Sequence record: MZ311863.1
DNA length: 64,000 nt
Direction: 5' to 3' (one strand)
DNA from: Escherichia phage vB_EcoM_LNA1
Shown here: piece by piece, positions 21,744 to 64,000 of the stretch
How positions within the stretch are numbered: the first letter of the stretch is position 1
Layout: each line of letters opens with the position of its first letter
The notes under the pieces: generated by a model
What the model was told of the DNA's origin: nothing
Databases searched by the model: none
Seen by the model: only the letters and a program-made list of their open reading frames with translations
Translations under genes and position numbers: made by a program

Positions 21744-21750
21744 AATGAAA

Positions 21751-21772
21751 GGGTCTCTTCGGAGACCTTTTT
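21751..21772 (+). terminator. intrinsic terminator
   Basis: ggtctcTTCGgagacc hairpin plus ttttt. Confidence 0.55.
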
Positions 21773-21791
21773 AGCATGTAAAGGGGCAATA

Positions 21792-27027: not shown

Positions 27028-27029
27028 TC

Positions 27030-27917: not shown

Positions 27918-28188
27918 AGAGAAGTGGGAGATTTTACCATTAGTCAGTGAAGGCGGTAATGGTTGTGAAATGTACATGATACGTGGTCATGTTCCAGAAC
28001 CAATTGCACTTGAGATGGTAAACAACTTTACAGATGGCTCTTACAAAGACTTAGGGGAGCCAAATATAAAGCAGCAATGGGTAAAGCCTGTACCAGACAG
28101 CACAGGTAACTGTAGTGTACTTTATCACGTTGTAGACCCTGCAAAATGCAAATCTGCAATGGCAGTAACAAACGTAACTTTTGATTGA
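27910..28188 (+). CDS. hypothetical protein
   Basis: 92-aa ORF. Confidence 0.3.
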   Translation: MAKEKWEILPLVSEGGNGCEMYMIRGHVPEPIALEMVNNFTDGSYKDLGEPNIKQQWVKPVPDSTGNCSVLYHVVDPAKCKSAMAVTNVTFD

Positions 28189-29081
28189 GAGAGAAAACTA
28201 TGAAAACTGTTATTGAAGCCGTCGTCACCGCTCAAGAGAAATTCTTCCACACAGAAAAATTTAATATCATTCAATTCCCATCTGGAGAAATTGGTGGAAA
28301 CTTCTCTGAAGATTTTGTTAAGTTTACTGAGCGTAATGCTGGTAAGATTGATAATGTTATAATTACTGTACAGGGATATGACAAAGATACACTGTTTGCA
28401 TTAGCTTTGGCTAAGGATGCCGTTGACAGTCTTGTTCCCCAGAAATCAGCGATGAAAACCGTTGTTTTCGGGTTCTTACCAAATGCTCGATATGACCGCC
28501 ACATGTTCAAAGGTGATGCAGCAGCACTGAAAGTCTTTGCCAACCTAGTTAATGCAATGGGTTTTGATGCAGTATGTGCTCTTGACCCTCACAGTAATGT
28601 TGCAGAAAACTTATTTAAGTGCTTTCAAAGCATGAAGCAAAAAGATGTGGCAGTACACTTTGCAAGTGACCCACGCATTGATTTCTTGGTAGCCCCAGAT
28701 GCAGGTGCAGCTAAGAAGACTGAAGATACCGCTAAAGAGGTGGATAAACCGTATATCACAATGTCTAAGGTGCGCAATCTTAAGACTGGAGAAATCACTG
28801 GTATGCGAATCCTTGACGATGTTGATTTGACCGATAAAACTGTCATGATTCTTGATGATATCTGTGATGGTGGTCGAACCTTCGTAGAGGCAGCTAAACA
28901 CCTACGTGAAGCAGGTGCAAAACGTGTGGAACTCTATGTAACTCATGGTATTTTCTCTAAAGGTGTTGAAAACTTGCTTGACAACGGTATTGACCATATC
29001 TACACTACAAACACTTTAGGTGAAGCTAAAGACCGTGGCTTAACACATTACGCCCAAGTTACTGTAGCAACCATTGATTGA
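28185..29081 (+). CDS. prs: ribose-phosphate pyrophosphokinase (PRPP synthetase)
   Basis: 298 aa; PRPP-binding loop MILDDICDGGRT (consensus DDxxDTGGT). Confidence 0.7.
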   Translation: MREKTMKTVIEAVVTAQEKFFHTEKFNIIQFPSGEIGGNFSEDFVKFTERNAGKIDNVIITVQGYDKDTLFALALAKDAVDSLVPQKSAMKTVVFGFLPNARYDRHMFKGDAAALKVFANLVNAMGFDAVCALDPHSNVAENLFKCFQSMKQKDVAVHFASDPRIDFLVAPDAGAAKKTEDTAKEVDKPYITMSKVRNLKTGEITGMRILDDVDLTDKTVMILDDICDGGRTFVEAAKHLREAGAKRVELYVTHGIFSKGVENLLDNGIDHIYTTNTLGEAKDRGLTHYAQVTVATID

Positions 29082-29126: not shown

Positions 29127-30908
29127 ATGACTAAATCGCTTTACGCAGTACCAGCAGGTTTAAACGCAGATGCTTACAAATCTGGTCATGTTTACCAGTA
29201 CCCTAGTGCAACAGAATACTTGATGTTCAACCTGACACCACGTAGTGACAAATGGTTTAACAGCCCCTTAGCAATTGATGGTGTAGTAGCTTTTGGTATT
29301 CAACGTTTCGTTAAAGATTACCTGATAGACCACTGGAACGCCACTTTCTTTGAACGTGATAAAAAAGAAGCAGTTGACGAAATCTTAGAAGTCATGAATG
29401 GTGTTCTGGGTAAAGATGCTATCGGTCGAGAGCATTGGGAAGCACTTCACGATTTAGGCTATCTACCAGTTGAAGTATACGCTGTAGAAGAAGGTACAGT
29501 TGTTCCTATGCGTGTTCCAATGATTGTCTTCCAGAACACTGTTTCAGGTTTCCATTGGGTAGCAGGTTATCTGGAAGATGCTTTCTCTGCTGAGATTTGG
29601 AAGACTTGCACCATTGCAACTATTGCATTGCACTACAAACGTATCTGTAAGAAGTGGGCTGACCTTACTTGCGACAATGACTTACATTTACCTTATCAGT
29701 GCCATGACTTTGCTATGCGTGGTATGTCCGGCTTTACCGATGACGCATTTAATGCTGTAGGTCACTTAACCAGCTTTAAAGGAACTGATAGCTTCCCTGC
29801 TGTATACACGGCTAAACGCATCTATGGACAGTCTTACCCAATTTCTGATATTGGTAGTTCTGTACCAGCCACTGAACACTCTGTAATGTGTGCAAACATT
29901 GCTTGGGAAGGTGGTAATGAATTGATTGAAGAGGAAAGACGCTTTAAAGGTGAGTTGCAAACCTTCCGTCGTTTCTTAACAGAAACTTACCCAACTGGTA
30001 TTGCAAGTATTGTTTCAGATACTTATAACTTCTGGAGAACTGTGTCAGAAATCTTACCAGCACTTCGTAAAGAAATTATGGAACGTGATGGTAAGCTGGT
30101 AATTCGCCCTGACTCTGGAGACCCTGTACATATTGTCACAGGCTATAAAGCAATCCACTTAGAGTGTGCTAAGAAGACTTATTATGAGCACCTAAGCAAG
30201 CTGGAAGCTAGTGACACAATGTTGAATGCTGTTCTGAACATGAAGCTTGAAAACATCAACTATGGTATTGCTGGATGGCTACTGTCAGAAGGCTACGAAA
30301 TGGTTGTTGACAGAGAAGACTTTGAAGTTGCTGATACAGTGATGTTGAAAAATGCTTATATGGTTGGCTCTGCAAACGTTGTAACACGTCCTGTAGCAGA
30401 GATTGATGGAGCTATTAAGACCCTGTACAACATCTTCGGAGGGACTATTAACTCTAAAGGGTTTAAGGTACTGGATGAGCACATCGGCCTTATCTATGGT
30501 GACTCTATCACGCTGGAACGTGCAAACGAAATCCTGAAGCGTCTGTATGAAATGGGTTTTGCAAGCTCTAACGTAGTGTTTGGTGTAGGCTCTTACACTT
30601 ACCAGTACATGACTCGTGACACCTTTGCATTTGCTGTCAAAGCAACTCTTGCAAGCATTGGTGGTAAAGAGATTATGCTTGCAAAAGACCCTAAAACAGA
30701 TAGTGGTGTTAAGAAATCTGCCTTTGGTGGTGTAGCACCTATGTGGGATGGTGATAAGCTGAAAGCTGTAGATGGCTATGGATTCCAGAGTTTTGCAGAT
30801 GTACTTGACCACCAAGCTTGTGCTTTACGTTTAGTCTTTAGCGACTCTGAGCAGTTCGGTTATACAACTCTTGGAGATATTCGAAATAATATTGACAAGC
30901 AGCTTTAA
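29127..30908 (+). CDS. nadV: nicotinamide phosphoribosyltransferase (NadV-like)
   Basis: 593 aa; directly follows prs; GHLTSFKGTDS and general NAPRTase-family architecture (motif-level call from memory). Confidence 0.6.
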   Translation: MTKSLYAVPAGLNADAYKSGHVYQYPSATEYLMFNLTPRSDKWFNSPLAIDGVVAFGIQRFVKDYLIDHWNATFFERDKKEAVDEILEVMNGVLGKDAIGREHWEALHDLGYLPVEVYAVEEGTVVPMRVPMIVFQNTVSGFHWVAGYLEDAFSAEIWKTCTIATIALHYKRICKKWADLTCDNDLHLPYQCHDFAMRGMSGFTDDAFNAVGHLTSFKGTDSFPAVYTAKRIYGQSYPISDIGSSVPATEHSVMCANIAWEGGNELIEEERRFKGELQTFRRFLTETYPTGIASIVSDTYNFWRTVSEILPALRKEIMERDGKLVIRPDSGDPVHIVTGYKAIHLECAKKTYYEHLSKLEASDTMLNAVLNMKLENINYGIAGWLLSEGYEMVVDREDFEVADTVMLKNAYMVGSANVVTRPVAEIDGAIKTLYNIFGGTINSKGFKVLDEHIGLIYGDSITLERANEILKRLYEMGFASSNVVFGVGSYTYQYMTRDTFAFAVKATLASIGGKEIMLAKDPKTDSGVKKSAFGGVAPMWDGDKLKAVDGYGFQSFADVLDHQACALRLVFSDSEQFGYTTLGDIRNNIDKQL

Positions 30909-52874: not shown

Positions 52875-53339
52875 TTACTTTGGATATACACTGTCAAGAT
52901 AAATGTTAGCTTCCATTCTACGTCTGTTTTTCAGTCCGTTTGAAGTAACCTTCTCACCTTTGACTGTAATCTTGTTCCACCACTGCATAGCTTCTGCACA
53001 ACCTACCTTATTACCAGCATTGTGGCGCTTGATAAATGTAGAGTCCTGCATAGCTGTGATACCGATGTTGTATGTTTCACTTACAAGTGCGTCGAACTCA
53101 TTCTGAGAAGTGGGAACCTTGATAGCTTTGTTCACTGCTGTAACAAACTTTTCAACATCTGCGAGAAGATACTGTTCAGCTTGTTCAGCCGTGATTTTCA
53201 TACCCATCTTAACAGGTTTTCCGTCAATACGGATTGTACCATACCCGATTGTTGGGATTCCGGCAGAATCTTTGTAAGCCTCTAACTTCAGACCTTCAAA
53301 GAACTTAATGGCTTCTAAGCCTTTTCTTGAGAGTTGCAT
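52875..53339 (-). CDS. endolysin, GH24 lysozyme family
   Basis: 154 aa; EGLKLEAYKDSAGIPTIGYG matches lambda R / P22 gp19 lysozyme catalytic region. Confidence 0.7.
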   Translation of the reverse strand: MQLSRKGLEAIKFFEGLKLEAYKDSAGIPTIGYGTIRIDGKPVKMGMKITAEQAEQYLLADVEKFVTAVNKAIKVPTSQNEFDALVSETYNIGITAMQDSTFIKRHNAGNKVGCAEAMQWWNKITVKGEKVTSNGLKNRRRMEANIYLDSVYPK

Positions 53340-54724
53340 TATGCCCCTCCTGCTGGGTTAACTGTAACCGTTGCCGCATTAGATGTTACAGAGCCACCTG
53401 CACCAGTTACAACGCAAGTGTAGCTTCCTGCATCAGCAGCGGTTGCACCTTCTTTGGTGTAAGTTGCAGTAGTTGCGTCTGGGATGTTTTCCTCACCCTT
53501 CTTCCACTGATAGCCTGTTGCACCTGTTGCCACAACATTCAGCGTTAAGGTCTCACCTTCAGTGATTTCTTGATTGGTTGGCTGTTGAGTGATTACAGGA
53601 AGAGCATTCACAGTAACTGTCGCTGCATTAGAAGTGACTGTTGTACCACCTGCACCAGTAACTACACAGGTATATGAACCAGCATCAGCAGGGGCTGCTT
53701 TAGCTTTCGTGTAAGTTGCACCAGTTGCGCTAGGGATGTTCACATTGTCTTTCTTCCATTGGTAACCTGTTGCACCTGTAGCCTCAACGCTCAGCGTCAA
53801 GCTACTACCTTCATTGACTGCTTGGCTGGTTGGCTGCTTGGTAATCACTGGTAGAGCGTTTACTACAACAGTCGCAGGGCTAGAAGTAACAGAACCACCT
53901 GCACCCGTTACAACGCAAGTGTATGAACCTGCATCTGCTGGCAGTGCGCCAGACTTGCTATAAGTAGCTTCTGTAGCTGAAGGGATGTCAGAGCCATCTT
54001 TCTTCCATTGGTAACCTGTTGCACCTGTTGCAGCCACTTCCAAGTTGATATTCCCACCCTCATTGATGGTCTGGCTAGAAGGTTGCTGTGTAATCACAGG
54101 TAGTGCATTAACAGTAACTGTTGCCGCGTCTGAAGTAACACTTGTCCCAGCCTCTCCAGATACAACACAAGTATATGAACCAGCATCGGCAGGTACTACA
54201 GATTGTTTTGTATAAGTTGCAGAAGTGGCACTGGAGATATCCTCACCACCCTTCTTCCATTGATATCCAGTGGCGTTAGTTGCAAGAACGCTTAGGGTAA
54301 GTGTGCCACCCTCATTAACTGTTTGGTTTGTTGGTTGCTGAGTAATTGCTGGTGGCTTAATAGCATCCTTCAGCTTAGCATTCAACATTGAGAACGGCTT
54401 AACTCTTGCCAACCATTCACAATACACTGTATCAACGTCTTTACCATTGATAATTGCATATTGTAAATCCATGAAGAAGTCAGAAGTTCTCATTTGAGCA
54501 CCGACGCTGTAAAGCAAATCATCACTAAAAGGAACTTTATAGTCTGGTTTGTAGTCAAACTTCTCAACTTCTGCGATATCAGCTTCAGGCCAATATGAGC
54601 TATAGGTTAGTGGTAAAATAGCCTCTTGATATGTTCTAAAATCATATCTCTTACCAGCCTTTACGTTTGCAATGAAGCCCTTCACAAACTCTTTGAAGTC
54701 TGGGTAAGTCTTTGCTTTAATCAT
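53339..54724 (-). CDS. protein with four tandem Ig-like repeats
   Basis: 461 aa; about 170-aa N-terminal domain then four ~95-aa repeats each containing ATGYQWKK...ADAGSYTCVV (Ig/I-set-like); underlying DNA 53357-54347 is tandemly repeated. Confidence 0.5.
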   Translation of the reverse strand: MIKAKTYPDFKEFVKGFIANVKAGKRYDFRTYQEAILPLTYSSYWPEADIAEVEKFDYKPDYKVPFSDDLLYSVGAQMRTSDFFMDLQYAIINGKDVDTVYCEWLARVKPFSMLNAKLKDAIKPPAITQQPTNQTVNEGGTLTLSVLATNATGYQWKKGGEDISSATSATYTKQSVVPADAGSYTCVVSGEAGTSVTSDAATVTVNALPVITQQPSSQTINEGGNINLEVAATGATGYQWKKDGSDIPSATEATYSKSGALPADAGSYTCVVTGAGGSVTSSPATVVVNALPVITKQPTSQAVNEGSSLTLSVEATGATGYQWKKDNVNIPSATGATYTKAKAAPADAGSYTCVVTGAGGTTVTSNAATVTVNALPVITQQPTNQEITEGETLTLNVVATGATGYQWKKGEENIPDATTATYTKEGATAADAGSYTCVVTGAGGSVTSNAATVTVNPAGGA

Positions 54725-55958: not shown

Positions 55959-56350
55959 AGATAATCCTCTTGTCTTCTGTAATTTTGAAAGAACAGGTAC
56001 AGACCAATTTCAGAGGATGAATAGTAGAGTAACTCTACCCTTTTTGATTCCTTACAGTGATTGGTGTTTTTACCTTTCTTCGGGTTATTTGATTTTCTCA
56101 TTAAGTCTCCTTTGTAGAACAAGGCAGACCTACAGCTTTAAGTAAGATGGTACAGTAATCCATACAACAAGTCAAGAACTATTACAAGTTAAAAAAGTTG
56201 TTGACAAAGTACTTGACAAGGTGTAGGCTTATAAATACTTAGAAGATAACTTAAAAGGTTCCTCTAAAAAGGCTATTTAAACAGATATCTTTCTGGATAT
56301 CTATCTTTTATCTTAAAAGCCTTTTAAGAGGTCTTATAAGAGGCATACCA

Positions 56351-56722
56351 ATGAAAAACAGAACAAACAAAGGCCAGTTTAAAAAAGGCCAATCTGGAAA
56401 CCCATCTGGAAGACCAAAAGGCTCTCGTAACAAAAGCTCACTTGTAAAAGCTCAACTGACCATTGATAATTCTGCTGAGTTTGCTGCAAAGCTGTTTGAG
56501 GCAATTGTTACAAGGGATGCTGCTAAGCTTGCAGAGTTCGGGTTAAACACAGATGACGTAACCATCAAGAGTATGATTGAGGTCGGTAAAACCATCTTTA
56601 CTCACTCAGCAGGTGAGATGAAAGCACTTGCAGCAGACACTAAGAAAACCCCTGATAATGGTGGTCAGCCACAGACAGATAACAAACCAACGTTCTCTGC
56701 TGTAGCGACTCTCAAAAAATAA
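56351..56722 (+). CDS. hypothetical protein with GNPSGRPKG motif (DUF5681-like)
   Basis: 123 aa; N-terminal KGQFKKGQSGNPSGRPKGSRN, a motif I recall from a phage/plasmid DUF family. Confidence 0.35.
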   Translation: MKNRTNKGQFKKGQSGNPSGRPKGSRNKSSLVKAQLTIDNSAEFAAKLFEAIVTRDAAKLAEFGLNTDDVTIKSMIEVGKTIFTHSAGEMKALAADTKKTPDNGGQPQTDNKPTFSAVATLKK

Positions 56723-56803
56723 TTTTAAAAGGTGTTGACAGACTCTGCAAAGTTGTTCTAAAGTCTGTCACATCAAACAACAAATGAGAGAAGAGAGTAA
56801 AAT

Positions 56804-58219
56804 ATGAGCGAATTATTCAAACATGCGCACCTTCATGCAGGTCGAACTGAAAATGGTGCTGTAAACCATACTTCATCAATGTCTGCTCTTGTGGACTTTT
56901 ACAAAGCTGCTGGTTCAAGCCGTAGCAATGTAGAAATCTTACCAGACTTGTTCTACAAAGCTTTGCGTGAGGATGTTGATGTTGCAGTTCGTATTTTGCT
57001 TCACATGCGAGATGTACGAGAAGGTATGGGTGAGCGTAAAGCCTTCAGAACTGTTTTACTTAAAGCAATCGAAGATAAAGTTTTAGAGCCTACACAGGTT
57101 CTTCGTATTATGGATAAGATTGCAGAACTTGGTCGTTTTGATGACTTCAAAATCTTTGTAGGTACTCGTTTCGAAACAGATGCCTTCAAGCATTTAGAAG
57201 CAGCATTACTAGACCCTGCAACAGCAGGTTTGGCAGCCAAGTGGTTACCACGAGTCAAACCACGTCATAAGCAGTTTGTAAAACGTTTCTGCAAGTTTGC
57301 CAACTTGAGTGAGAAAGAGTACCGCACACTGTTGTCTGCACTGTCTGATACAGTTGAGCAAAAAATCTCTGCTAATGAGTTTGGTAAGATTGACTACAGT
57401 AAGATTCCTTCACTTGCTGCTGCACGTTACCAAAAACTCTTTAACCGTAAAGATGGGGAACGTTACAAAGCTTACATCGAGTCCCTCTCAAAAGGTGAGG
57501 CTAAGATTAATGCTGGTGCTGTTTACCCATACGATGTGATTAAATCTATCAAGTATGGTAATGCAGATGTTGCTAATGAGCAGTGGAAAGCACTACCAAA
57601 CTGGATGGCAGAAGGTGAAAACATCCTGTGTATGACTGATGTTTCAAGCTCAATGTCTTGGGTGAATCTTGGCTCAATTACTGCCCTTGATATTGGTGTA
57701 TCACTTGCCTTGTATGTAGCAGAACGCAATACAGGTTGCTTCAAGGATGAGTTAATGGTTTATTCAACAAACCCTCACTTCATCGAACTGAGTGGTGATT
57801 TACGAAACCGTCATCGTCAGGTGATGCGACATGTTGAATATGGCTCAACTAACTTACAAGCAGCTTTTGACCGCATTCTTGAGGTAGGTAAGAGAAACAA
57901 CTTGACTCAGAAAGATATGCCAAGTAAGCTTATCATCTTCTCTGATATGGAGTTCAATCAGGTTGATGGTGCAAATGGTCGTACAAACTTTGAAGCAATT
58001 CAGAGTAAGTACAAAAAAGCTGGATACGAAATGCCACAACTAGTATTCTGGTACTTAGCAAACCGTAATGGTACTTGCGAAGTGTCTGTTAAGGATAATG
58101 GTGTAGCAATGGTATCGGGGTTCTCTCCAGCCACTTTAAAAGCTCTGCTTGGTGGTGAGAAGTTTGACCCAATCAGCGTAATGCTTAAAGCAGTAATGAT
58201 TGACCGTTATATCTGGTAA
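56804..58219 (+). CDS. vWA (MIDAS) domain protein, possibly TROVE/Ro-like
   Basis: 471 aa; C-terminal half has MIDAS motif DVSSSMS and downstream IIFSDMEFN; N-terminal helical domain unassigned. Confidence 0.45.
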   Translation: MSELFKHAHLHAGRTENGAVNHTSSMSALVDFYKAAGSSRSNVEILPDLFYKALREDVDVAVRILLHMRDVREGMGERKAFRTVLLKAIEDKVLEPTQVLRIMDKIAELGRFDDFKIFVGTRFETDAFKHLEAALLDPATAGLAAKWLPRVKPRHKQFVKRFCKFANLSEKEYRTLLSALSDTVEQKISANEFGKIDYSKIPSLAAARYQKLFNRKDGERYKAYIESLSKGEAKINAGAVYPYDVIKSIKYGNADVANEQWKALPNWMAEGENILCMTDVSSSMSWVNLGSITALDIGVSLALYVAERNTGCFKDELMVYSTNPHFIELSGDLRNRHRQVMRHVEYGSTNLQAAFDRILEVGKRNNLTQKDMPSKLIIFSDMEFNQVDGANGRTNFEAIQSKYKKAGYEMPQLVFWYLANRNGTCEVSVKDNGVAMVSGFSPATLKALLGGEKFDPISVMLKAVMIDRYIW

Positions 58220-58238
58220 AAAGTTTTAAAAAAGGGTA

Positions 58239-58267
58239 TTGACAATGTGTTTAATACCCTTTAATAT
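58239..58267 (+). promoter_or_regulatory. sigma70-like promoter
   Basis: TTGACA-17 nt-TAATAT; a second weaker TTGACA element at 58330. Confidence 0.45.
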
Positions 58268-58385
58268 GTTCTACATAGAGACGAAATGAGAGCTTTTCTA
58301 AGATACTGAAAAATATTTTAAAAAAGTTCTTGACAATCACTAAAAAATAATGTTAAAGTGGTTACATAGAGTTTGAAAAGTTTAT

Positions 58386-58462
58386 CTCTGTTTAGCTCAG
58401 CTTGGTAGAGCGTTCCGTTTGGGGCGGTAAGGCCGGAGGTTCAAGTCCTCCAACAGAGACCA
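58386..58462 (+). tRNA. tRNA-Pro (UGG)
   Basis: manual fold: acceptor ctctgtt/aacagag (C1-G72), D-arm gctcagcttggtagagc, anticodon loop tttgggg, T-arm ggagg-ttcaagt-cctcc, CCA encoded. Confidence 0.65.
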
Positions 58463-58469
58463 AATTAAT

Positions 58470-58547
58470 GTTCCAGTAGACAAAATGGTATAGTCACCAC
58501 TCTTTCAAAGTGGATATTTGAGGGTTCAAATCCCTTCTGGAACGCCA
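58470..58547 (+). tRNA. tRNA-Glu (UUC)
   Basis: acceptor gttccag/ctggaac, anticodon arm ccact-ctttcaa-agtgg, T-loop ttcaaat. Confidence 0.6.
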
Positions 58548-58552
58548 GTTTT

Positions 58553-58630
58553 GACAGAAGACCAATTACAGCAAACTTAATCTTATTCATCTGAAGGTAA
58601 ATCGGACAAAGAAGAGATTTGGTCTGGTCA
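58553..58630 (+). repeat. inter-tRNA repeated element (copy a)
   Basis: gACAGAAGACCaaTTACAGCAA ... tttGGTCTGGtca; same 5' and 3' motifs recur in 3 further units. Confidence 0.5.
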
Positions 58631-58638
58631 TTAAGAAT

Positions 58639-58715
58639 TGCGGGTATAGAGAAAGGGCGTCTCACATGTCTCATTAGCATGGTATCGGCAGGTTCGACTC
58701 CTGCACCCGCCTCCA
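58639..58715 (+). tRNA. tRNA with CAU anticodon (Met or Ile2-type)
   Basis: D-arm gaga-aagggcg-tctc, anticodon arm catgt-ctcatta-gcatg, T-arm gcagg-ttcgact-cctgc; acceptor pairing imperfect, exact ends uncertain. Confidence 0.5.
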
Positions 58716-58720
58716 AATTT

Positions 58721-58790
58721 TACAGAAGACCGTTTACAGCAATATTTATTAAATTTTTAGCGGAAAAATTGAAAGATACGGTCTGGTAAT
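58721..58790 (+). repeat. inter-tRNA repeated element (copy b)
   Basis: tACAGAAGACCgtTTACAGCAA ... acGGTCTGGtaat. Confidence 0.5.
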
Positions 58791-58799
58791 ACTAAATAT

Positions 58800-58876
58800 G
58801 GTTAGGAAGCACATAAGGTATGTGCGGTCGCCTGTTAAGCGAATGGCACAGGGTTCGAATCCCTGACTAACCGCCA
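58800..58876 (+). tRNA. tRNA-Asn (GUU)
   Basis: anticodon loop ctgttaa, T-arm caggg-ttcgaat-ccctg, acceptor ggttagg/actaacc, CCA encoded. Confidence 0.65.
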
Positions 58877-58885
58877 AATTTAAAT

Positions 58886-58973
58886 GTGTCGTTATCCCGT
58901 AGATGGTAGCGGTGGGGACTGTAAATCCCTTGTCATTGAGACTCGGTAGGTTCGACTCCTACACGGCACACCA
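58886..58973 (+). tRNA. tRNA-Tyr (GUA), long variable arm
   Basis: 88 nt; anticodon arm gggga-ctgtaaa-tccct, T-arm gtagg-ttcgact-cctac, acceptor gtgtcgt/acggcac. Confidence 0.6.
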
Positions 58974-58994
58974 ATTTTGATAGGGCTACTTAGC

Positions 58995-59030
58995 CCCTCC
59001 CTTAAAGGGTTCTTACGAGTATCCTTTAAA
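58995..59030 (+). repeat. palindromic element AAGGGTTCTTACGAG..TCCTT (copy 1)
   Basis: cccttaaagggttcttacgagtatcctttaaagg; second copy at 62443. Confidence 0.5.
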
Positions 59031-59032
59031 GG

Positions 59033-59112
59033 AGCAGAAGACCAAATACAGCAAGTTACTTAAAATTTCAAGCCAATTTAATTTTGAAAAATTTAAAACT
59101 TGGTCTGGCTCA
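59033..59112 (+). repeat. inter-tRNA repeated element (copy c)
   Basis: gagCAGAAGACCaaaTACAGCAA ... ttGGTCTGGctc. Confidence 0.5.
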
Positions 59113-59120
59113 ACAAATTT

Positions 59121-59258
59121 ACAGAAGACCGTTTACAGCAAAACTTAAACAATCTATTTCTCGGTAAAGAAAAGGCGAAGATTCGACTCCTTCACTCGGC
59201 AGATGTCGAGTTGGTGTAATGGTAGCACTTAAGATGATAAACAACGGTCTGGTAATTA
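59121..59258 (+). repeat. inter-tRNA repeated element (copy d) containing tRNA-like fragments
   Basis: ACAGAAGACCgtTTACAGCAA ... T-arm-like gaagattcgactcctt and hairpin actcggcagatgtcgagt ... acGGTCTGGtaat. Confidence 0.45.
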
Positions 59259-59401
59259 CCTTTGTAGGTGAGCTATTAAGCTTACCTGTGAGTATGCGAC
59301 CACAAAGGGTGAAAGGGTAAATTCTAGATTTAAACCCAAAAAGGCACATCACTACAGACCTTAAGCAAGTCTGGGTAGCTTATCTACAAAGATAATTTAA
59401 T

Positions 59402-59477
59402 GGAAGTGTAGCAGAATGGTGATGCGGCAGACTTTTAATCTGACAGGCGATGGGTTCGATTCCCTCCACTTCTACCA
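59402..59477 (+). tRNA. tRNA-Lys (UUU)
   Basis: anticodon loop cttttaa, acceptor ggaagtg/cacttct, T-loop ttcgatt, CCA encoded. Confidence 0.6.
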
Positions 59478-59481
59478 ATAT

Positions 59482-59558
59482 GGTTCAGTCGCAGATAAGG
59501 TAATGCAAGGGTCTCATAAACCCTATGAATGTGGGTTCGATTCCCATCTGAACATCCA
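59482..59558 (+). tRNA. initiator tRNA-fMet (CAU)
   Basis: anticodon arm agGGt-ctcataa-aCCct with three consecutive G-C pairs, and 1-72 mismatch (G.A): both are bacterial initiator hallmarks. Confidence 0.6.
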
Positions 59559-59560
59559 AT

Positions 59561-59636
59561 GCTGTGAAAGCACATATGGATGTGCATTCGGCTGATAACC
59601 GAAAGGCAGAAGGTTCGAATCCTTCTCACAGTACCA
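59561..59636 (+). tRNA. tRNA-Ile (GAU)
   Basis: anticodon arm ttcgg-ctgataa-ccgaa, T-arm gaagg-ttcgaat-ccttc, D-arm gcac/gtgc. Confidence 0.65.
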
Positions 59637-59651
59637 ATTTCAATAAAGTTG

Positions 59652-59680
59652 TTGACATTGAGATGTGACTACTTTATACT
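59652..59680 (+). promoter_or_regulatory. strong sigma70-consensus promoter
   Basis: TTGACA-17 nt-TATACT; followed by about 200 nt with no ORF before next tRNA. Confidence 0.55.
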
Positions 59681-59884
59681 AACCTTAGTTTTCGTTGCGT
59701 AGCGTCTATTTTGCAAATTTAAAATAAATGCAAACGACAATGTTTTTCTGGCAGTAGCTTAATAGGCTAAACACCAGTGAGGTCTTCCAATCCCTCATCA
59801 AAGAATTTGGCGTACTCGCCCACGGTATGGTTAATAAGGTGGGCATCTTTAAGGGCTTTCTAAGAGAGTCTTTAAAGATAATTA

Positions 59885-59966
59885 CGGGGCGTATCTCAGC
59901 TGTCTTCTAAACAGCCGTTAACCGAGTAAGTGGAGTATGCGGGTTCGAGTCCTGCCGCCTCGACCA
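59885..59966 (+). tRNA. atypical tRNA-like gene (possible Arg UCU-type hairpin)
   Basis: good 7-bp acceptor cggggcg/cgcctcg and T-arm gcggg-ttcgagt-cctgc with CCA, but internal arms non-canonical; hairpin gctgt-cttctaa-acagc looks like an anticodon arm. Confidence 0.35.
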
Positions 59967-60115
59967 ATTTAGTTAGCAGATTACTTAGACGACCTAAGCG
60001 GGTCTTCCTGTAGGGAGGTGGTCTGTATCTCATGTTTTCCAGAACATGTAAATAATCTGAGAAGGGGCTTTACAGTGTTGAGATAATACGGTAAGCTTCG
60101 AATTATAGTTTTAAT

Positions 60116-60186
60116 AGGGGTGAGCTATGGCAGCAATAGAGTCTCCAAAATTCTTGATTAGAGTTCGAATCTCTCCACCCCTGCCA
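60116..60186 (+). tRNA. tRNA-Trp (CCA)
   Basis: starts aggggtg, anticodon loop ctccaaa, ends caccccctgcca; closely parallels E. coli tRNA-Trp ends. Confidence 0.7.
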
Positions 60187-60200
60187 GAACAGGTGCTTGT

Positions 60201-60605
60201 ATGAAACTTTGTAGAAAATGTTCTCAAGAAAAGCCTTTAAGCTGCTTTCATAAAAGGGGTAATGGCTATCAGTCTGCTTGCAAAGATTGTAAAGCTAAGT
60301 ACTCAGCAAAGAGATACAAAGAAGACCCTACTTATAAAGCAAAAAGAAAAGTTAGGGCAAAATATGACAAAAAGAGGAACAGAGAGTTCCTTAGTAGATA
60401 TAAAAAGTTTTGCAAATGCAGGATGTGTGGCGAATCTGAGCCAGTAGCTTTGGATTTTCATCACTTAGACCCTAAAGAGAAAGATTTTGCTCCAAGCAAT
60501 CTTAAAACTTACTCTAGAGGCACTATTAAGCGTGAAGTCCGTAAGTGTGTTGTGCTTTGTTCAAACTGTCATAGGAAAGTTCATGCAGGACTGTTAAGTA
60601 TTTAA
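60201..60605 (+). CDS. HNH endonuclease inside tRNA cluster
   Basis: 134 aa; Zn-ribbon CRKC...CKDC and DFHHLDP...CSNCHRKVH HNH motif. Confidence 0.6.
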   Translation: MKLCRKCSQEKPLSCFHKRGNGYQSACKDCKAKYSAKRYKEDPTYKAKRKVRAKYDKKRNREFLSRYKKFCKCRMCGESEPVALDFHHLDPKEKDFAPSNLKTYSRGTIKREVRKCVVLCSNCHRKVHAGLLSI

Positions 60606-60618
60606 CAGTCTTATTAGG

Positions 60619-60706
60619 GGTAGGTAGCGGCTAATGGTAGCCAAACTGTCTTGAAAACAGTTGCCACTGTAGAGATACGGTGAGGGTTCGACTCCTTTAC
60701 TTACCG
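60619..60706 (+). tRNA. tRNA-Ser (UGA), long variable arm
   Basis: 88 nt; anticodon arm actgt-cttgaaa-acagt; long variable arm; T-loop ttcgact; CCA not encoded. Confidence 0.6.
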
Positions 60707-60962
60707 CCTAATAAGATTTTAAAGCCAAGCTTCATTCGGATGTCGCTTTGGTATCCCTCGTGTTGTCTAACACATTGATAAAACACCTAGTAGGTGTCAC
60801 GGAGAAGAGATAATATCAAGCTCTCCAAAGGTTCTAGTCGCCGGATTAAACAAGACTATGCAAAGACCTTTTTAGGTCTTTTTAGAGGGCTTCTAAGGTT
60901 ATTACAGCTTGTTGTGGAACCTTGTTGCTTAGGTTCTTAGAAGTTCTCTAAAAAGATTTAAT

Positions 60963-61040
60963 GGGAGATTGATGGTAATTGGTAAACCTATCTCGCTTAG
61001 AACGAGATGTTTGAGGGTTCGAATCCCTTGTCTCCTACCA
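60963..61040 (+). tRNA. tRNA with UAG anticodon (Leu-type) but short variable arm
   Basis: anticodon arm tctcg-cttagaa-cgaga; T-arm gaggg-ttcgaat-ccctt; discriminator A; class I length. Confidence 0.5.
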
Positions 61041-61047
61041 AATTAAT

Positions 61048-61123
61048 GCAGGTGTAGCAAAATGGTTATGCGGCTGACTCTTAATCAGTAAGACGATGGG
61101 TTCGAATCCCTCCACCTGTACCA
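61048..61123 (+). tRNA. tRNA-Lys (CUU)
   Basis: paralogue of 59402 tRNA; anticodon loop ctcttaa. Confidence 0.55.
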
Positions 61124-61129
61124 AACATT

Positions 61130-61205
61130 GGGGATGTAGTTTACATGGTTAAAACATAAGTTTTGCAAACTTAAGTACAGGGTTCAATTCCCTGCTTCTC
61201 CACCA
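61130..61205 (+). tRNA. tRNA-Ala (UGC)
   Basis: G3.U70 wobble in acceptor (Ala identity element), anticodon loop ttttgcaa, ends ctccacca. Confidence 0.7.
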
Positions 61206-61211
61206 ATTAGT

Positions 61212-61286
61212 GCATCCATAGTTTAAACGGGAAAATTACAGTCTTCCAAACTGAGGTTGAGGGTTCGATTCCCTCTGGATGCTCCA
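61212..61286 (+). tRNA. tRNA-Gly (UCC)
   Basis: acceptor gcatcca/tggatgc, anticodon loop cttccaa, discriminator U. Confidence 0.65.
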
Positions 61287-61292
61287 AATAAT

Positions 61293-61369
61293 GCTGCTTT
61301 CGTATAATTGGCTATTACACATCCCTTGTAAGGATGGAAATGCAGGTTCGAGTCCTGTGAGCAGCACCA
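61293..61369 (+). tRNA. tRNA-Thr (UGU)
   Basis: anticodon arm catcc-cttgtaa-ggatg, T-arm gcagg-ttcgagt-cctgt. Confidence 0.65.
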
Positions 61370-61371
61370 AT

Positions 61372-61462
61372 TCAGAGGTCAAGTGAAAGACCGCTGGTGT
61401 CAACTGAAGACCGTAACAAATTCCACGGAGTTGAGTTAGCGGCACAACTTCAGACCTCTTTC
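61372..61462 (+). ncRNA. candidate structured non-tRNA element
   Basis: terminal inverted repeat cagaggtc...gacctct; contains ctGAAGACCGTaACAaA related to the inter-tRNA repeat motif. Confidence 0.3.
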
Positions 61463-61464
61463 AT

Positions 61465-61539
61465 ACTCGCTTAGTTTATATGGTAAAATATCACCCTTAC
61501 AAGATGAAGAAAAAGGTTCAAGTCCTTTAGTGAGTACCA
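61465..61539 (+). tRNA. tRNA-Val (UAC)
   Basis: anticodon loop cttacaa, T-arm aaagg-ttcaagt-ccttt, acceptor actcgct/agtgagt. Confidence 0.55.
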
Positions 61540-61540
61540 T

Positions 61541-61618
61541 GTTCCAGTATCCCAATTGGCAGAGGATGCAAGCTCAAACCTTGTATTAGTGACGGTTCGA
61601 ATCCGTCTTGGAACACCA
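61541..61618 (+). tRNA. tRNA with CAA anticodon (Leu-type) but short variable arm
   Basis: anticodon arm gcaag-ctcaaac-cttgt; acceptor gttccag/ttggaac shared with the Glu tRNA at 58470; discriminator A. Confidence 0.45.
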
Positions 61619-61637
61619 ATTTTAAGAGGCTATTTAG

Positions 61638-62195
61638 ATGAGATATTTGAAGTATGCTTCATGGATTTTCCTAGCTTTACTAGAACCATTTGCAGCAGCC
61701 CTAGCAGTCATCTTAGCACCTTTCGTAGTTCCATTCTACAGTGAGAAGAAAGGGCATCTACCTTTTGGATTCAGATGGATGGAGACCTATGACAACCCGA
61801 TTGATGGTGATGAAGGCCACGTTAAAAGATGGGCTAAGATTAGAAAGATTGGTAAGCTGGGTGTCTACATGCAGAGAGTTGGATGGCTCTGGAGAAACAA
61901 AGCTTATAACTTCTCTTACCATGTATTAGGAAGAGATGTAAAAGGTGTGACTAAGTGGAAAGGTAATATCAACGTAAGTTCTGACCCTGAAGATAATCAG
62001 ACAGGTTATCTCCTAATGTGGAACAGTAATGCTTGGGGATTATTCGCTTTTATCCCATCAATTAAAGTCTTTGGTAAGCAGTTTTACTGGAGAATTTATG
62101 TTGGATGGAAACTAAAAAGCGTTGTCCCAGAAGAGAGAGCATTCTCAAGGGAAAGAGTTATGTTGGCATTCTTTATTCATCCACTGAGAAAGTAA
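61638..62195 (+). CDS. hypothetical membrane protein
   Basis: 185 aa; N-terminal hydrophobic helix WIFLALLEPFAAALAVILAPFVVPF; embedded in tRNA cluster. Confidence 0.4.
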   Translation: MRYLKYASWIFLALLEPFAAALAVILAPFVVPFYSEKKGHLPFGFRWMETYDNPIDGDEGHVKRWAKIRKIGKLGVYMQRVGWLWRNKAYNFSYHVLGRDVKGVTKWKGNINVSSDPEDNQTGYLLMWNSNAWGLFAFIPSIKVFGKQFYWRIYVGWKLKSVVPEERAFSRERVMLAFFIHPLRK

Positions 62196-62203
62196 AGATT
62201 TAA

Positions 62204-62279
62204 AGGGGATTAGTTTACAAGGTTAAAACCTCGGTCTTTGAAATCGAAGAAGTTGGTTCAATTCCAACATCCCCCGCCA
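62204..62279 (+). tRNA. tRNA-Gln (UUG)
   Basis: anticodon arm tcggt-ctttgaa-atcga, T-arm gttgg-ttcaatt-ccaac. Confidence 0.55.
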
Positions 62280-62281
62280 AT

Positions 62282-62360
62282 GCTCCATTACTCCAATTGG
62301 CAGAGAGGCCAGACTTAAAATCTGTGTTATGTATCGGTTCGAATCCGATATGGAGTACCA
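62282..62360 (+). tRNA. tRNA with UAA anticodon (Leu-type) but short variable arm
   Basis: anticodon loop cttaaaa, T-arm atcgg-ttcgaat-ccgat, discriminator A. Confidence 0.45.
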
Positions 62361-62365
62361 ATTTT

Positions 62366-62441
62366 AGCGGTATAGCATAACTGGCAATGCAGCAGTCTCT
62401 GAAGCTGTCCTATTAAGGTTCAAATCCTTATGCCGCTGCCA
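62366..62441 (+). tRNA. tRNA-Gln (CUG)
   Basis: anticodon arm gcagt-ctctgaa-gctgt, T-arm taagg-ttcaaat-cctta. Confidence 0.55.
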
Positions 62442-62442
62442 C

Positions 62443-62470
62443 TTCTAAGGGTTCTTACGAGAGTCCTTAA
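62443..62470 (+). repeat. palindromic element AAGGGTTCTTACGAG..TCCTT (copy 2)
   Basis: cttctaagggttcttacgagagtccttaaatg. Confidence 0.5.
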
Positions 62471-62471
62471 A

Positions 62472-62547
62472 TGTGGCCTTATCATAAATGGTAATGACCC
62501 ATGCTGTGAACATGGTCTATACGGGTTCAAATCCCGTAGGTCACCCC
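62472..62547 (+). tRNA. tRNA-His (GUG)
   Basis: anticodon arm ccatg-ctgtgaa-catgg, discriminator C, T-arm acggg-ttcaaat-cccgt; no encoded G-1 seen. Confidence 0.6.
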
Positions 62548-62552
62548 AATTT

Positions 62553-62629
62553 ATAGTCCAAGTAGCTTATATGGTTAAAGCGCGTGTCTGAAAAACATGA
62601 GAAGAGGGTTCAAATCCCACTGGACTACC
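62553..62629 (+). tRNA. tRNA-Phe (GAA)
   Basis: anticodon arm cgtgt-ctgaaaa-acatg, acceptor tagtcca/tggacta; 3' end assignment uncertain. Confidence 0.55.
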
Positions 62630-62646
62630 AATTTCAAAGGTGCTTA

Positions 62647-63381
62647 ATGAAAGAGATGACAGAACAAGGTAAGGAGATTTTTAATCTCTTAAAAACCGGT
62701 AAAGGGTTTTCTAACCCGCTTATTACTGGTGCAGCAGTTCTCGGTGGAACCGTAGCTGCCTCTACATCACTTGTAAGCTCTATTAGCTCTGTAACAGACC
62801 CTACAATAAAAGATAAGCTTGTTGCTGCTGGGCTTACAACAGTCCTTCTAAACAGCTTTACAACAAGCCTTACAAGCACTACAGCAACTACTAAGACCCT
62901 AACAGACTACGGTCAAAAGTCTATTGATGAGTTTTCATCACGTATGCAGGTAGCAAAGGGATACTCCAATGTTATGGGTGCAGCAGGGGAACAAGTTGGT
63001 TGTACACCATTCAGTGGTATTATGGGTGTTGCTACAGAGTATGGTCAAAAAGCTATTGGCATGATGAACAGTACACTAGATAGTGTTAATGGTGTGTTAA
63101 GTGACTTGCAAGACGCTATTGATGAGGGTCTTGATACTGTTTCTGATTTAGCTAATCAAGCTGTTAGTAAAATTAATGAAGGCATTTCAAAGATTACAGC
63201 TTATGCAGATGAAGTTGTGCAGATGATTGAAGAAGAAGCTGCCCTTATTGCAGAGTACCTTAAAACGAATATTAATGGGTTCTTAGCAGGTATCTTACCA
63301 GACTGGTTTGATGATGCCTGTAAAACTGGTGTAATTGACACTATTGCAACACCAGAAATGAAGAGCGCATTACAGAAATAA
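62647..63381 (+). CDS. hypothetical Ser/Thr-rich protein
   Basis: start moved to internal Met (MKEMTEQG) because the 5' part of the ORF overlaps tRNA-Phe. Confidence 0.4.
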   Translation: MKEMTEQGKEIFNLLKTGKGFSNPLITGAAVLGGTVAASTSLVSSISSVTDPTIKDKLVAAGLTTVLLNSFTTSLTSTTATTKTLTDYGQKSIDEFSSRMQVAKGYSNVMGAAGEQVGCTPFSGIMGVATEYGQKAIGMMNSTLDSVNGVLSDLQDAIDEGLDTVSDLANQAVSKINEGISKITAYADEVVQMIEEEAALIAEYLKTNINGFLAGILPDWFDDACKTGVIDTIATPEMKSALQK

Positions 63382-63382
63382 T

Positions 63383-63475
63383 GGAAGATTAACCCTAAAA
63401 GGTAAGGGAGCAGTTTGCTAAACTGCCAGTAGCTGAGAAATCGGTGTACCAGTTCAAGTCTGGTATCTTCCTCCA
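63383..63475 (+). tRNA. tRNA-Ser (GCU), long variable arm
   Basis: 93 nt; anticodon arm gcagt-ttgctaa-actgc, 21-nt variable arm, T-arm accag-ttcaagt-ctggt. Confidence 0.65.
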
Positions 63476-63480
63476 ATTTT

Positions 63481-63556
63481 GAATCCGTGACAGAAATGGA
63501 TATGTGCCTGTCTGCAAAACAGGTTTATAAGGGTTCAAGCCCCTTCGGATTCTCCA
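63481..63556 (+). tRNA. tRNA-Cys (GCA)
   Basis: anticodon arm cctgt-ctgcaaa-acagg, discriminator U, acceptor gaatccg/cggattc. Confidence 0.65.
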
Positions 63557-63778
63557 AGTTATTTTACTCTCTCTCAATTAAAATAATAATAATGCCCTGC
63601 TATAAGTATTCTTCCTTTCGCTACCGAAGAGTATTTTTAGACAGGGCTTTTTTACAGAGTTATACTTTATAAGAAGCCTTATACAGTATGTCTCTGACGT
63701 ACATTGTGGTTTCTCCTTGACGGTCTCTGTGCCGTCTTTTTTAAGGGGAAACAAGATTAATTATTTGGAGAAAACATA

Positions 63779-63979
63779 ATGAGCGAGAACGTTTATAAAG
63801 AACTTTATGAAGCTAACAAGAAGTTAGAGTTTATGCAGAATACTATCATGGCAATTGCAGATAGATTATCTGTAGCAACAGGTATTGATATTAAAGAAGC
63901 ATCTATGGATGCACTTCTTGATGCTGTTGATGCAAAGTTCGAAGTTAAGAAAGAAGAGACTGCTACAGACTCTGAATAA
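63779..63979 (+). CDS. small hypothetical acidic protein
   Basis: 66-aa ORF. Confidence 0.3.
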   Translation: MSENVYKELYEANKKLEFMQNTIMAIADRLSVATGIDIKEASMDALLDAVDAKFEVKKEETATDSE

Positions 63980-64000
63980 TTCTATTTGCGGAGGCGCTTA

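Follow-up and report, generated by a model that had tools for sequence, protein, structure and literature searches.

The 64,000-nucleotide (nt) stretch of DNA from Escherichia phage vB_EcoM_LNA1 analysed here as a whole (sequence record MZ311863.1; "the window") carries three transfer RNA (tRNA) genes with the leucine anticodons UAG, CAA and UAA, which have a short variable loop in the place of a long variable arm. It is highly probable that all three encode functional leucine tRNAs, which would be charged by the host and would supplement its minor leucine isoacceptors, and the observations that bear on this concern gene structure, conservation, identity nucleotides, covariation, the meaning of leucine codons in alignments and codon usage. 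A preliminary description, made from the letters alone, had assigned these anticodons to genes starting at 60963, 61541 and 62282, had given them 78–79 nt, variable regions of 4–7 nt and a discriminator A73, and had proposed that they are either unusual short-arm leucine tRNAs, or tRNAs with a wrongly assigned anticodon, or tRNAs charged with another amino acid that reassign leucine codons. The same calls were made by ARAGORN and Rfam, and the genes are 78, 78 and 79 nt long, with variable regions of 5, 6 and 7 nt and A73 throughout. Their place in the Rfam tRNA family RF00005 is given by scores above its gathering score of 29 in all three cases (Table 1), together with the ARAGORN cloverleaves. 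An error in the anticodons can be set aside, since the 7-nt loops of the form C/U-U-NNN-A-N are placed alike by ARAGORN, by Rfam and, in phage Felix O1, by tRNAscan-SE (PMC3185647), and the view that these are unusual short-arm leucine tRNAs is upheld by the two gene finders, published tRNAscan-SE results, identity nucleotides, covariation and a codon test.

With the arms delimited by reference to the 3' end and to the anticodon as placed by ARAGORN, Leu(UAG) has the variable loop UGUUU, the first pair G1.U72 and the anticodon loop CUUAGAA, Leu(CAA) has AUUAGU, G1-C72, CUCAAAC and the D loop AAUUGGCAG, and Leu(UAA) has GUUAUGU, G1.U72 and CUUAAAA; in all three genes A73 is followed by CCA. Such variable regions fall short of the arm of at least 10 nt, folded into a stem-loop, that marks a type II tRNA-Leu, and which measures 13–15 nt in leuW, leuX and leuZ of Escherichia coli and 13 nt in phage T5. 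Apart from single mismatches the stems are intact, so that the genes do not have the appearance of tRNA pseudogenes. The long arm is retained in the same array by tRNA-Tyr (88 nt) and by both tRNA-Ser genes (90 and 93 nt), which indicates that among these tRNAs arm loss is limited to leucine. The premise of the preliminary description, that a long arm is normal in bacterial tRNA-Leu, applies to the host genes leuZ (87 nt), leuX (85 nt) and leuW (85 nt), but not to Streptomyces (PMC6614811) and many Actinomycetota.

The window belongs to Felixounavirus (FelixO1-like phages), with 98.4% identity to phages L27 and REP8-12. The 1.5-kb stretch that contains the three genes is 97–98.4% identical to Felixounavirus and close relatives in 254 records, and these relatives, which include L27, REP5-12, tootiki, VpaE1 and others, infect Escherichia, Salmonella and Shigella and have the same three genes annotated as tRNA-Leu. 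A T5-like origin of the window was considered and rejected, given the 98% match to Felixounavirus and the single 85-nt Leu(UAG) of T5. About 250 genomes of Felixounavirus, Mooglevirus and Suspvirus retain all three genes, with CAA and UAA at 95–100% identity, and copies 100% identical to Leu(CAA) of the window are present in wV8, Moogle, Sf13 and other phages. Leu(UAG) and Leu(UAA) are 100% identical to positions 26975–27052 and 28906–28984 of Felix O1, which tRNAscan-SE calls Leu TAG (Cove 52.24) and Leu TAA (Cove 57.88), with Leu CAA at 27976–28053 (Cove 46.15; PMC3185647, Table 1). In that genome the pseudogene flag is set on Tyr and His and on none of the three leucine genes (PMC3185647). 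Similarly, in the Moogle-like phage Sf14, described in 2025, the isotype models of tRNAscan-SE 2.0 place Leu on top for all three tRNAs, with scores of 67.4, 49.1 and 60.2 (PMC12482277, Tables 2-3), and list all of them as 'Consistent' with the anticodon (PMC12482277); its relatives Sf13 and Sf17-19 carry the window's genes at 98.7–100% identity. The tRNAscan-SE run that the preliminary description had proposed as a check is therefore answered in print for identical or near-identical genes, where the anticodons agree, none of the three is flagged as a pseudogene and Leu is the best-scoring isotype (PMC3185647, PMC12482277). The word 'variable' does not occur in either of these papers, and the missing arm is thus undiscussed there.

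The LeuRS (leucyl-tRNA synthetase) of E. coli identifies its tRNAs by A73, A14, A15:U48, G18G19, A20a, G18:U55, G19:C56 and U54:A58, and requires neither the anticodon nor the long arm (PMC9976931, PMC6614811). When leuZ, leuX and leuW of E. coli K-12 are set beside the phage genes, every nucleotide on these published lists is present in UAG, CAA and UAA alike, namely A73, U8 and A14, A15 and U48 (the last variable nucleotide), G18G19 and A20a, and U54, U55, C56 and A58 in the T loop UUCGAAU, the tertiary pairs being read from the sequence and not from a structure. Furthermore, truncated tRNA-Leu molecules without the arm are still substrates of E. coli LeuRS, according to the part of PMC9976931 that summarises Larkin 2002 and Asahara 1993/1998. 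The alanine determinant G3:U70 occurs in none of the three genes, in which position 3:70 is G3-C70, U3-A70 and U3-A70, respectively. SerRS requires the long arm and G73 under the published identity rules (PMC9976931) and is thereby excluded, and other synthetases read position 35 or 36 differently, which leaves LeuRS as the sole plausible charging enzyme by elimination. Leucylation of the three tRNAs by enterobacterial LeuRS is strongly suggested by these features.

The three genes do not share one core. CAA and UAA have the type I core (A9, C12:G23, C13.A22) with a variable loop of 4–7 nt that ends in U48, whereas Leu(UAG) has G9, G12:C23 and G13.A22 with a 5-nt loop. The latter core is also found in host and T5 tRNA-Leu, and Leu(UAG), judged by its sequence, combines a short arm with a type II-like core. 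Its core class comprises 10 of 184 unique short viral leucine tRNAs, including those of T5-like and Aeromonas phages, and the same G9, G12:C23, G13.A22 combination is present in 19 of 33 long leucine tRNAs; the type I signature is found in 139 of the 184 short viral and in 89 of 106 short GTDB leucine tRNAs. A73 is present in 175 of the 184 short viral tRNAs and a final U of the variable loop in 174, and A14, A15, G18, G19, A20a and A22 are near-invariant. In the 178 of them that passed a pairing filter the stems covary: canonical pairs make up 98.9% of the acceptor stem against 56% with shuffled partners, 96.1% of the anticodon stem against 52%, and 98.7% of the T stem against 69%. Four to six pair types occur at 14 of the 17 stem pairs, three at 52:62, and 53:61 is an invariant G-C.

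For Leu(UAG) the two gene finders differ in register, as Rfam aligns the gene one base to the right (start 60964), with an acceptor stem of 6 base pairs (bp) and U73 followed by ACCA. This register was rejected in favour of that of ARAGORN for three reasons: A73 abuts CCA in the ARAGORN register, as the discriminator does in 23 of the 24 array tRNAs, the gene then starts directly after a TTAAT leader that also lies 5' of several neighbouring tRNAs, and a related contig has G1-C72 in the place of the window's G1.U72. The D arm then reads U8 G9 A10 U11 G12 G13 (U) A14 A15 U U G18 G19 U A20a A A22 C23 C24 U25. Within the genus Leu(UAG) also varies more than the other two genes, with 15 records at 99% identity or above and 91 at 80–90%. 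Two alleles exist within the genus, separated by eight differences in the anticodon stem, where double substitutions have reversed three pairs and a further pair has turned into U.U; the mismatch, in one of the alleles, is U30.U40.

Departures from the common form were also observed for the other two genes. In Salmonella phage FG1m a chimeric tRNA at 4999–5076 follows Leu(CAA) over its 5' two-thirds and, from a join within the shared T loop onwards, continues as the 3' end of Leu(UAA). The join removes the DUF7338 open reading frame (ORF) and the tRNA-Gln that lie between the two genes in the window and leaves a mismatched acceptor stem, which points to recombination between the two type I leucine genes. 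In addition, a Felixounavirus-like contig of IMG/VR has one Leu(CAA) copy with a G at the discriminator position, which, if real, should abolish leucine identity, or which could be a sequencing error.

The distribution of the type I body was surveyed with motif-selected scans, whose counts are lower bounds and not frequencies. IMG/VR was scanned for CCAATTGGCAGAG, the word that CAA and UAA share in the D arm, with the T loop GTTCGA 24–52 nt further on, and GTDB was scanned with one genome per species; each scan matched at least 120 entries, viral contigs in the one and bacterial genomes in the other. Among the IMG/VR matches listed, 119 of the 122 tRNAs with CCAATTGGCAGAG have a leucine anticodon (UAA 44, UAG 36, CAA 30, GAG 4, AAG 3, CAG 2) and all 122 are 74–79 nt long. 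One body thus carries all six leucine anticodons over both codon boxes, which indicates that the body goes with the leucine anticodon. The gap between word and T loop is 28–31 nt, equal to a variable loop of 4–7 nt, in 124 of 126 viral matches listed, and the type I word goes with a short loop in 121 of 122 GTDB matches listed; with the type II control word GGAATTGGTAGAC the gap is at least 33 nt, equal to a long arm, in 120 of 123 matches listed. Core signature and arm length are therefore tightly coupled. The listed GTDB matches come mostly from Actinomycetota (Nocardia, Mycobacterium, Gordonia, Rhodococcus, Corynebacterium, Amycolatopsis, Arthrobacter), with some Planctomycetota and others, and include 105 leucine tRNAs, all of 74–78 nt and mostly the lone tRNA in an 8-kb locus. 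The D arm GCCCAAUUGGCAGAGGC with a 5-nt loop is present in at least 100 species-level GTDB genomes, under the anticodons UAA, CAA, UAG, GAG and CAG. These copies in Actinomycetota suggest that type I tRNA-Leu is no phage invention, and on the sequences surveyed it appears to be far commoner than PMC6614811 implies.

Among named phages, short leucine tRNAs with a D arm of the CAA/UAA type are also carried by Erwinia phage phiEa21-4 (Kolesnikvirus; CAA, AAG and UAA) and Lactobacillus phage LpeD, and a blastn search with the phage CAA gene gave no match in 5,426 complete E. coli genomes. The idea that CAA and UAA acquired their 6–7-nt loops as an adaptation to enterobacteria found no support, as the same lengths occur in unrelated viral contigs, and several apparent cases are ARAGORN register shifts.

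The closest counterparts of the phage genes in the host are leuW (UAG), leuX (CAA) and leuZ (UAA), which have the same three anticodons, A73, U48 and an encoded CCA. Both sets also share the layout of the D region, 17 nt long (18 in the phage UAG gene), in which the stem has 3 bp, positions 13 and 22 are mismatched and the loop reads A14 A15 Y Y G18 G19 N A20a N; the T loop is UUCRAxU in all, and the first pair of leuZ is G1.U72, as in the phage UAG and UAA genes. The host genes, however, have arms of 13–15 nt where the phage genes have none, and the core of phage CAA and UAA differs as well. The anticodon-loop flanks are A37 A38 in phage UAG versus G37 U38 in the host, and C38 in phage CAA versus A38.

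The type I tRNA-Leu(CAA) of Streptomyces coelicolor resembles the phage genes in its short loop (5 nt there), and it coexists with type II tRNA-Leu under one LeuRS; U8:A14 is important in this tRNA, and the length of its variable loop matters but not the sequence (PMC6614811). Moreover, the D arm of CAA and UAA in the window (xCCAAUUGGCAGAGGx) is found in many Actinomycetota type I tRNA-Leu genes in the GTDB scan. The S. coelicolor gene is a host chromosomal one with C48, and its co-evolved LeuRS has a special leucine-specific domain and does not use A73 (PMC6614811); the phage genes, in contrast, are phage-borne, have U48 and loops of 5–7 nt, and enter hosts whose leucine tRNAs are all type II. 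Similarly, human mitochondrial tRNA-Leu(UUR) has a type I shape with A73 and A14 as identity elements (PMC9976931), but it is organellar, floppy, unrelated in sequence and served by a dedicated mitochondrial LeuRS. Minimal arm-less E. coli tRNA-Leu molecules are leucylated and edited provided that A73 and the contacts of the D and T loops are intact, as set out in the section of PMC9976931 on these constructs. The phage tRNAs resemble natural counterparts of such substrates, which, according to the same section, are laboratory constructs derived from a type II body (PMC9976931).

The nearest relatives of Leu(UAG) outside the genus are the 77-nt Leu(UAG) genes of many T5-like phages, with about 77% identity over the full length; that of Tequintavirus IrisVonRoten agrees with the window's gene in the T arm, the anticodon loop and the first part of the D stem. 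The short Leu(UAG) and Leu(UAA) genes of T5-like phages such as IrisVonRoten and of Aeromonas phage AhP_Mru1 have 77 nt and U-rich 5-nt loops (GUUUU, GUUCU), and like the window's UAG gene they combine G9, G12:C23 and G13.A22 with A73-CCA; in AhP_Mru1 both leucine tRNAs are of this short-arm kind with a type II-like core. Unlike the window's gene, the T5-like short Leu(UAG) belongs to another family (Demerecviridae) and has a regular D arm without the extra U. The comparison with T5-like tRNA sets suggested in the preliminary description was thus directed at the wrong family for the window, but it proved apt by coincidence, in that some T5-like phages carry a homologous short Leu(UAG). At the Ala-Leu-Ser position of Tequintavirus, T5 has an 85-nt long-arm Leu(UAG) (7625–7709) and IrisVonRoten a 77-nt short-arm one (8997–9073). 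The two differ throughout, which looks like replacement rather than deletion, and an origin of Leu(UAG) from the long-arm T5 gene by simple deletion was rejected for the same reason.

The meaning of the leucine codons was examined in the NrdA of the window (17685–19919), aligned with 59 homologues at 48–59% identity. The consensus is leucine at 6 of 7 CUA, 5 of 6 UUA and 6 of 11 UUG positions, and at 12 of 16 CUG and 10 of 16 CUU positions, which are codons read by the host; at isoleucine, valine and phenylalanine codons a leucine consensus occurs at 0–2 positions per codon, and at 3 of 23 for Val GUU. In a comparison with E. coli NrdA and NrdB, UUA, UUG and CUA stand opposite leucine in 16 of 42 cases (38%), other leucine codons in 19 of 52 (37%) and isoleucine, valine, methionine and phenylalanine codons in 37 of 220 (17%). 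In the 21 long ORFs of the window (38.9% GC), leucine is encoded by UUA in 21%, UUG in 16%, CUU in 30%, CUC in 4%, CUA in 10% and CUG in 19% of cases. The leuW, leuX and leuZ isoacceptors are single-copy minor species in E. coli K-12. The phage set corresponds to exactly these three minor leucine isoacceptors of the host, and compensation for codon usage is the simplest function that can be proposed for it. In Sf14 the relative synonymous codon usage of UUA and CUA is significantly above that of the host (PMC12482277, Table 3), and the authors of the Felix O1 paper counted Leu(UUA) among the tRNAs that are likely to aid translation (PMC3185647).

On this basis we infer that the leucine genes would be transcribed along with the rest of the 24-gene array and that the tRNAs would be excised by host RNase P and 3' nucleases, with the CCA already encoded. 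The LeuRS of the host (E. coli, Salmonella or Shigella) would then charge them with leucine by reading A73 and the shape of the elbow and core, to which U8:A14, A15:U48, the position of G18G19, A20a, G18:U55, G19:C56 and U54:A58 would contribute. In translation UUA and UUG would be decoded as leucine by the UAA and CAA tRNAs, and CUA and CUG, possibly also CUU, by the UAG tRNA. The benefit to the phage would be that the three minor leucine isoacceptors of the host are supplemented in the expression of an AT-rich genome that uses more UUA and CUA than the host does. With respect to origin, CAA and UAA probably derive from an old and widespread type I lineage, and UAG has a short-arm form with a type II-like core that T5-like coliphages also carry.

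Several observations weigh against functional, host-charged leucine tRNAs. E. coli LeuRS is reported to have failed entirely to charge the type I tRNA-Leu(CAA) of S. coelicolor, and type I charging to require a leucine-specific domain that is peculiar to Streptomyces (PMC6614811), so that charging of a type I body by enterobacterial enzymes is not to be taken for granted. The S. coelicolor tRNA has C48, and the A15:U48 element of E. coli needs U48 (PMC6614811); judged by the sequences, this difference from the U48 of the phage genes may explain the failure. Furthermore, the C-terminal and leucine-specific domains of E. coli LeuRS contact or favour the long arm (PMC3643597, PMC6614811), and in view of these contacts kcat/Km on the phage tRNAs may be reduced. 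With regard to structure, the D region of Leu(UAG) is irregular, with 18 nt, one extra U before A14 and a U11.C24 mismatch. The perfect 5-bp anticodon stems of the preliminary description hold for UAG alone, which has five Watson-Crick pairs; CAA has a G27.U43 wobble, and UAA has a C27.U43 mismatch at the top and four pairs. The minimum free energy (MFE) fold of UAA is no cloverleaf, that of CAA is one except for the D arm, and that of UAG is one apart from an anticodon helix lengthened to seven pairs; the fold z-scores of the three genes are modest (-1.6 to -2.2), and thermodynamic folding is uninformative for AT-rich tRNAs. Finally, the counts per codon in the codon test are small, and low-level misincorporation would escape it.

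Alternative accounts of what the genes are have to be measured against the same evidence. It is exceedingly improbable that the tRNAs receive one or more amino acids other than leucine and thereby reassign UUA, UUG and CUA in part or in full, even if the class-defining long arm is absent, UAG-anticodon tRNAs with threonine or alanine identity are known from yeast mitochondria (PMC7609411) and the tRNAscan-SE score of Sf14 Leu(UAG) for Leu (67.4) is just above those for Ile2 (65.7) and Lys (63.4; PMC12482277). The marks of a codon-reassigning tRNA were not found, as 3:70 is G-C, U-A and U-A without G3:U70, all three anticodon loops have 7 nt and the codon positions are leucine-like, with UUA, UUG and CUA positions aligned with leucine as often as the codons read by the host. 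In addition, A73 combined with A35 rules out the synthetases that read 35 or 36 differently, SerRS lacks the arm and G73 that it needs (PMC9976931), and among the IMG/VR matches listed the same body bears all six leucine anticodons and almost nothing else. The reassignment put forward in the preliminary description therefore finds no support in the identity elements or in the NrdA and NrdB alignments, and on present sequence evidence that of UUA, UUG and CUA is unsupported. It is also very unlikely that one or more of the genes, most plausibly Leu(UAG), is decaying or non-translational, for instance an uncharged decoy, processing signal or remnant of recombination. The extra D-loop nucleotide, U11.C24 and the shifted Rfam register of Leu(UAG) would fit such a state, as would its variability across the genus with the U30.U40 allele, the rearrangement of tRNA arrays in the genus, of which the FG1m chimera is an example, and the modest fold z-scores. 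The variation of Leu(UAG) is, however, compensatory, with three flipped pairs and G1.U72 alternating with G1-C72, and the gene encodes A73-CCA in a leader context like that of its neighbours. Moreover, T5-like phages contain a full-length homologue with a regular D arm, and tRNAscan-SE does not class Leu(UAG) as a pseudogene, unlike Tyr and His of the same Felix O1 genome (PMC3185647).

A further proposal concerns why the genes are short and not what they are. Under it, arm loss is itself adaptive, in that a type I body evades host nucleases, toxins or modification enzymes that recognise the arm, and decoding continues under attack; we regard this as unlikely. In its favour, phage tRNAs have been found to differ from those of the host so as to evade anticodon nucleases (PMC10264068), tRNA-cleaving defence effectors, including bacterial Schlafens, keep emerging (PMC13056530), and human SLFN11 is described in passages of PMC13056530, where it is cited, and of PMC10359600 as selectively cleaving type II tRNAs. 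The anticodon loops of UAG and CAA are unlike those of the host, both in the segmentation and in Table 8 of PMC12482277. Short leucine tRNAs occur in unrelated phages of type II hosts (Felixounavirus, Tequintavirus IrisVonRoten and Aeromonas Shenzhenvirus), and the arm is kept by Ser and Tyr, whose synthetases use it. We know of no bacterial nuclease that is specific for the tRNA-Leu arm, and literature searches yielded none. The bacterial Schlafen that has been studied cuts the anticodon arm (PMC13056530), T5 copes with an 85-nt long-arm Leu(UAG), and the authors of the Sf14 study found nuclease evasion unsupported in the Sf14 set (PMC12482277). The type I body is also a normal-looking lone chromosomal tRNA in many Actinomycetota, so that no arms-race explanation is needed. 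The conservative reading of the missing arm is one of ancestry, with the CAA/UAA lineage moving among phages, combined with tolerance: the loss would be tolerated in leucine tRNAs because bacterial LeuRS does not need the arm, and serine tRNAs would keep theirs because SerRS needs it. A broader conjecture, that type I tRNA-Leu is a portable arm-less adaptor which many phage families have spread, which any bacterial LeuRS reading only A73 and the elbow can use, and in which arm loss is counter-defensive in type II hosts such as E. coli and Salmonella, where type II-specific tRNA nucleases or toxins would overlook it, is likewise unlikely.

The three genes as such are not new, since hundreds of records list them as tRNA-Leu, an annotation that has been correct for years, and the type I form is known from mitochondria and Streptomyces. 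In the open-access literature no description was found of phage type I tRNA-Leu, of enterobacterial phages that bring it into hosts with type II tRNA-Leu only, of two structural routes to a short arm within one array, or of a type I core that is widespread in viral contigs and Actinomycetota. The long arm is the textbook and annotation hallmark of bacterial tRNA-Leu, and well-studied coliphages and Salmonella phages, among them Felix O1 and the REP phages with which recoded E. coli was challenged, routinely bring arm-less ones into hosts that lack them. The statement that almost all bacterial tRNA-Leu are type II understates the type I forms of phages and Actinomycetota, as the survey suggests. 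The phage genes offer a natural test of what E. coli LeuRS requires, sharpened by its reported rejection of the Streptomyces type I tRNA-Leu, and a compact, possibly nuclease-resistant leucine tRNA scaffold that is of interest to genetic-code engineering. The genetic code of the phage would be unchanged, and a link to tRNA-targeting defence is possible.

The leucine genes lie in an array of tRNA genes (Table 1), in which the spacers between tRNAs are typically 1–9 nt and 23 of the 24 tRNAs encode CCA. The exception is tRNA-Ser(UGA) at 60619–60708, with the 3' end GCC followed by taat. Most of the array tRNAs have TTAAT or AATAT on their 5' side and AATT on their 3' side, a recurrent spacer context that may guide processing. 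The promoter-like site upstream consists of a perfect -35 and an extended -10-like element and is possibly the start of array transcription; the number of promoter-like sites in the array region is not above shuffle expectation.

Table 1. Positions in the window of the three leucine tRNA genes, the array that contains them and the promoter-like site upstream
Feature	Position	Strand	Details
tRNA-Leu(UAG)	60963..61040	+	78 nt including encoded CCA; ARAGORN, Rfam 44.7 bits
tRNA-Leu(CAA)	61541..61618	+	78 nt including encoded CCA; ARAGORN, Rfam 44.0 bits
tRNA-Leu(UAA)	62282..62360	+	79 nt including encoded CCA; ARAGORN, Rfam 47.5 bits
Array of 24 same-strand tRNA genes, few small ORFs between	58386..63556	+	ARAGORN on 56000-64000
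Promoter-like site	58330..58359	+	TTGACA, 18 nt, TG-TAAAGT; ~27 nt upstream of first tRNA

Between tRNA-Thr and tRNA-Val, a stretch of about 90 nt (61370–61464, plus strand) forms a long imperfect hairpin with an MFE of -30.7 kcal/mol and a z-score of -3.19, which 1 of 200 shuffles matched. An Rfam scan found no family for it, and its possible roles are those of a small stable RNA, comparable to the ones annotated in the tRNA region of T5, or of an element that helps to process the array. In the 480-nt gap that precedes tRNA-Trp (59637–60115), the tmRNA-like and tRNA-Sec-like matches given by Rfam are all below threshold; in phage tootiki the corresponding region holds an HNH endonuclease gene. 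The tRNA-Trp itself (60116–60186, 71 nt) scores 29.8 bits and is barely above the Rfam threshold of 29. Conserved ORFs on the plus strand within the array encode a DUF7338 protein of 185 amino acids (61638–62195) and a DUF7217 protein of 265 amino acids (62584–63381), and the start of the latter overlaps the 3' part of tRNA-Phe (62555–62630). Directly upstream of the array, 56804–58219 on the plus strand encodes a protein of 471 amino acids with DUF2828 and DUF7788, whose homologue is labelled 'RNA-binding protein' in the FG1m record. Elsewhere in the window, 17685–22991 and 29127–30908 encode NrdA, NrdB, an NrdD-like protein with an ATP cone, a NAPRTase-family enzyme, a Dam-like methyltransferase and a primase-helicase, a nucleotide-metabolism cargo that is typical of Felixounavirus, and a protein rich in Ig domains is encoded at 53339–54724 on the minus strand.

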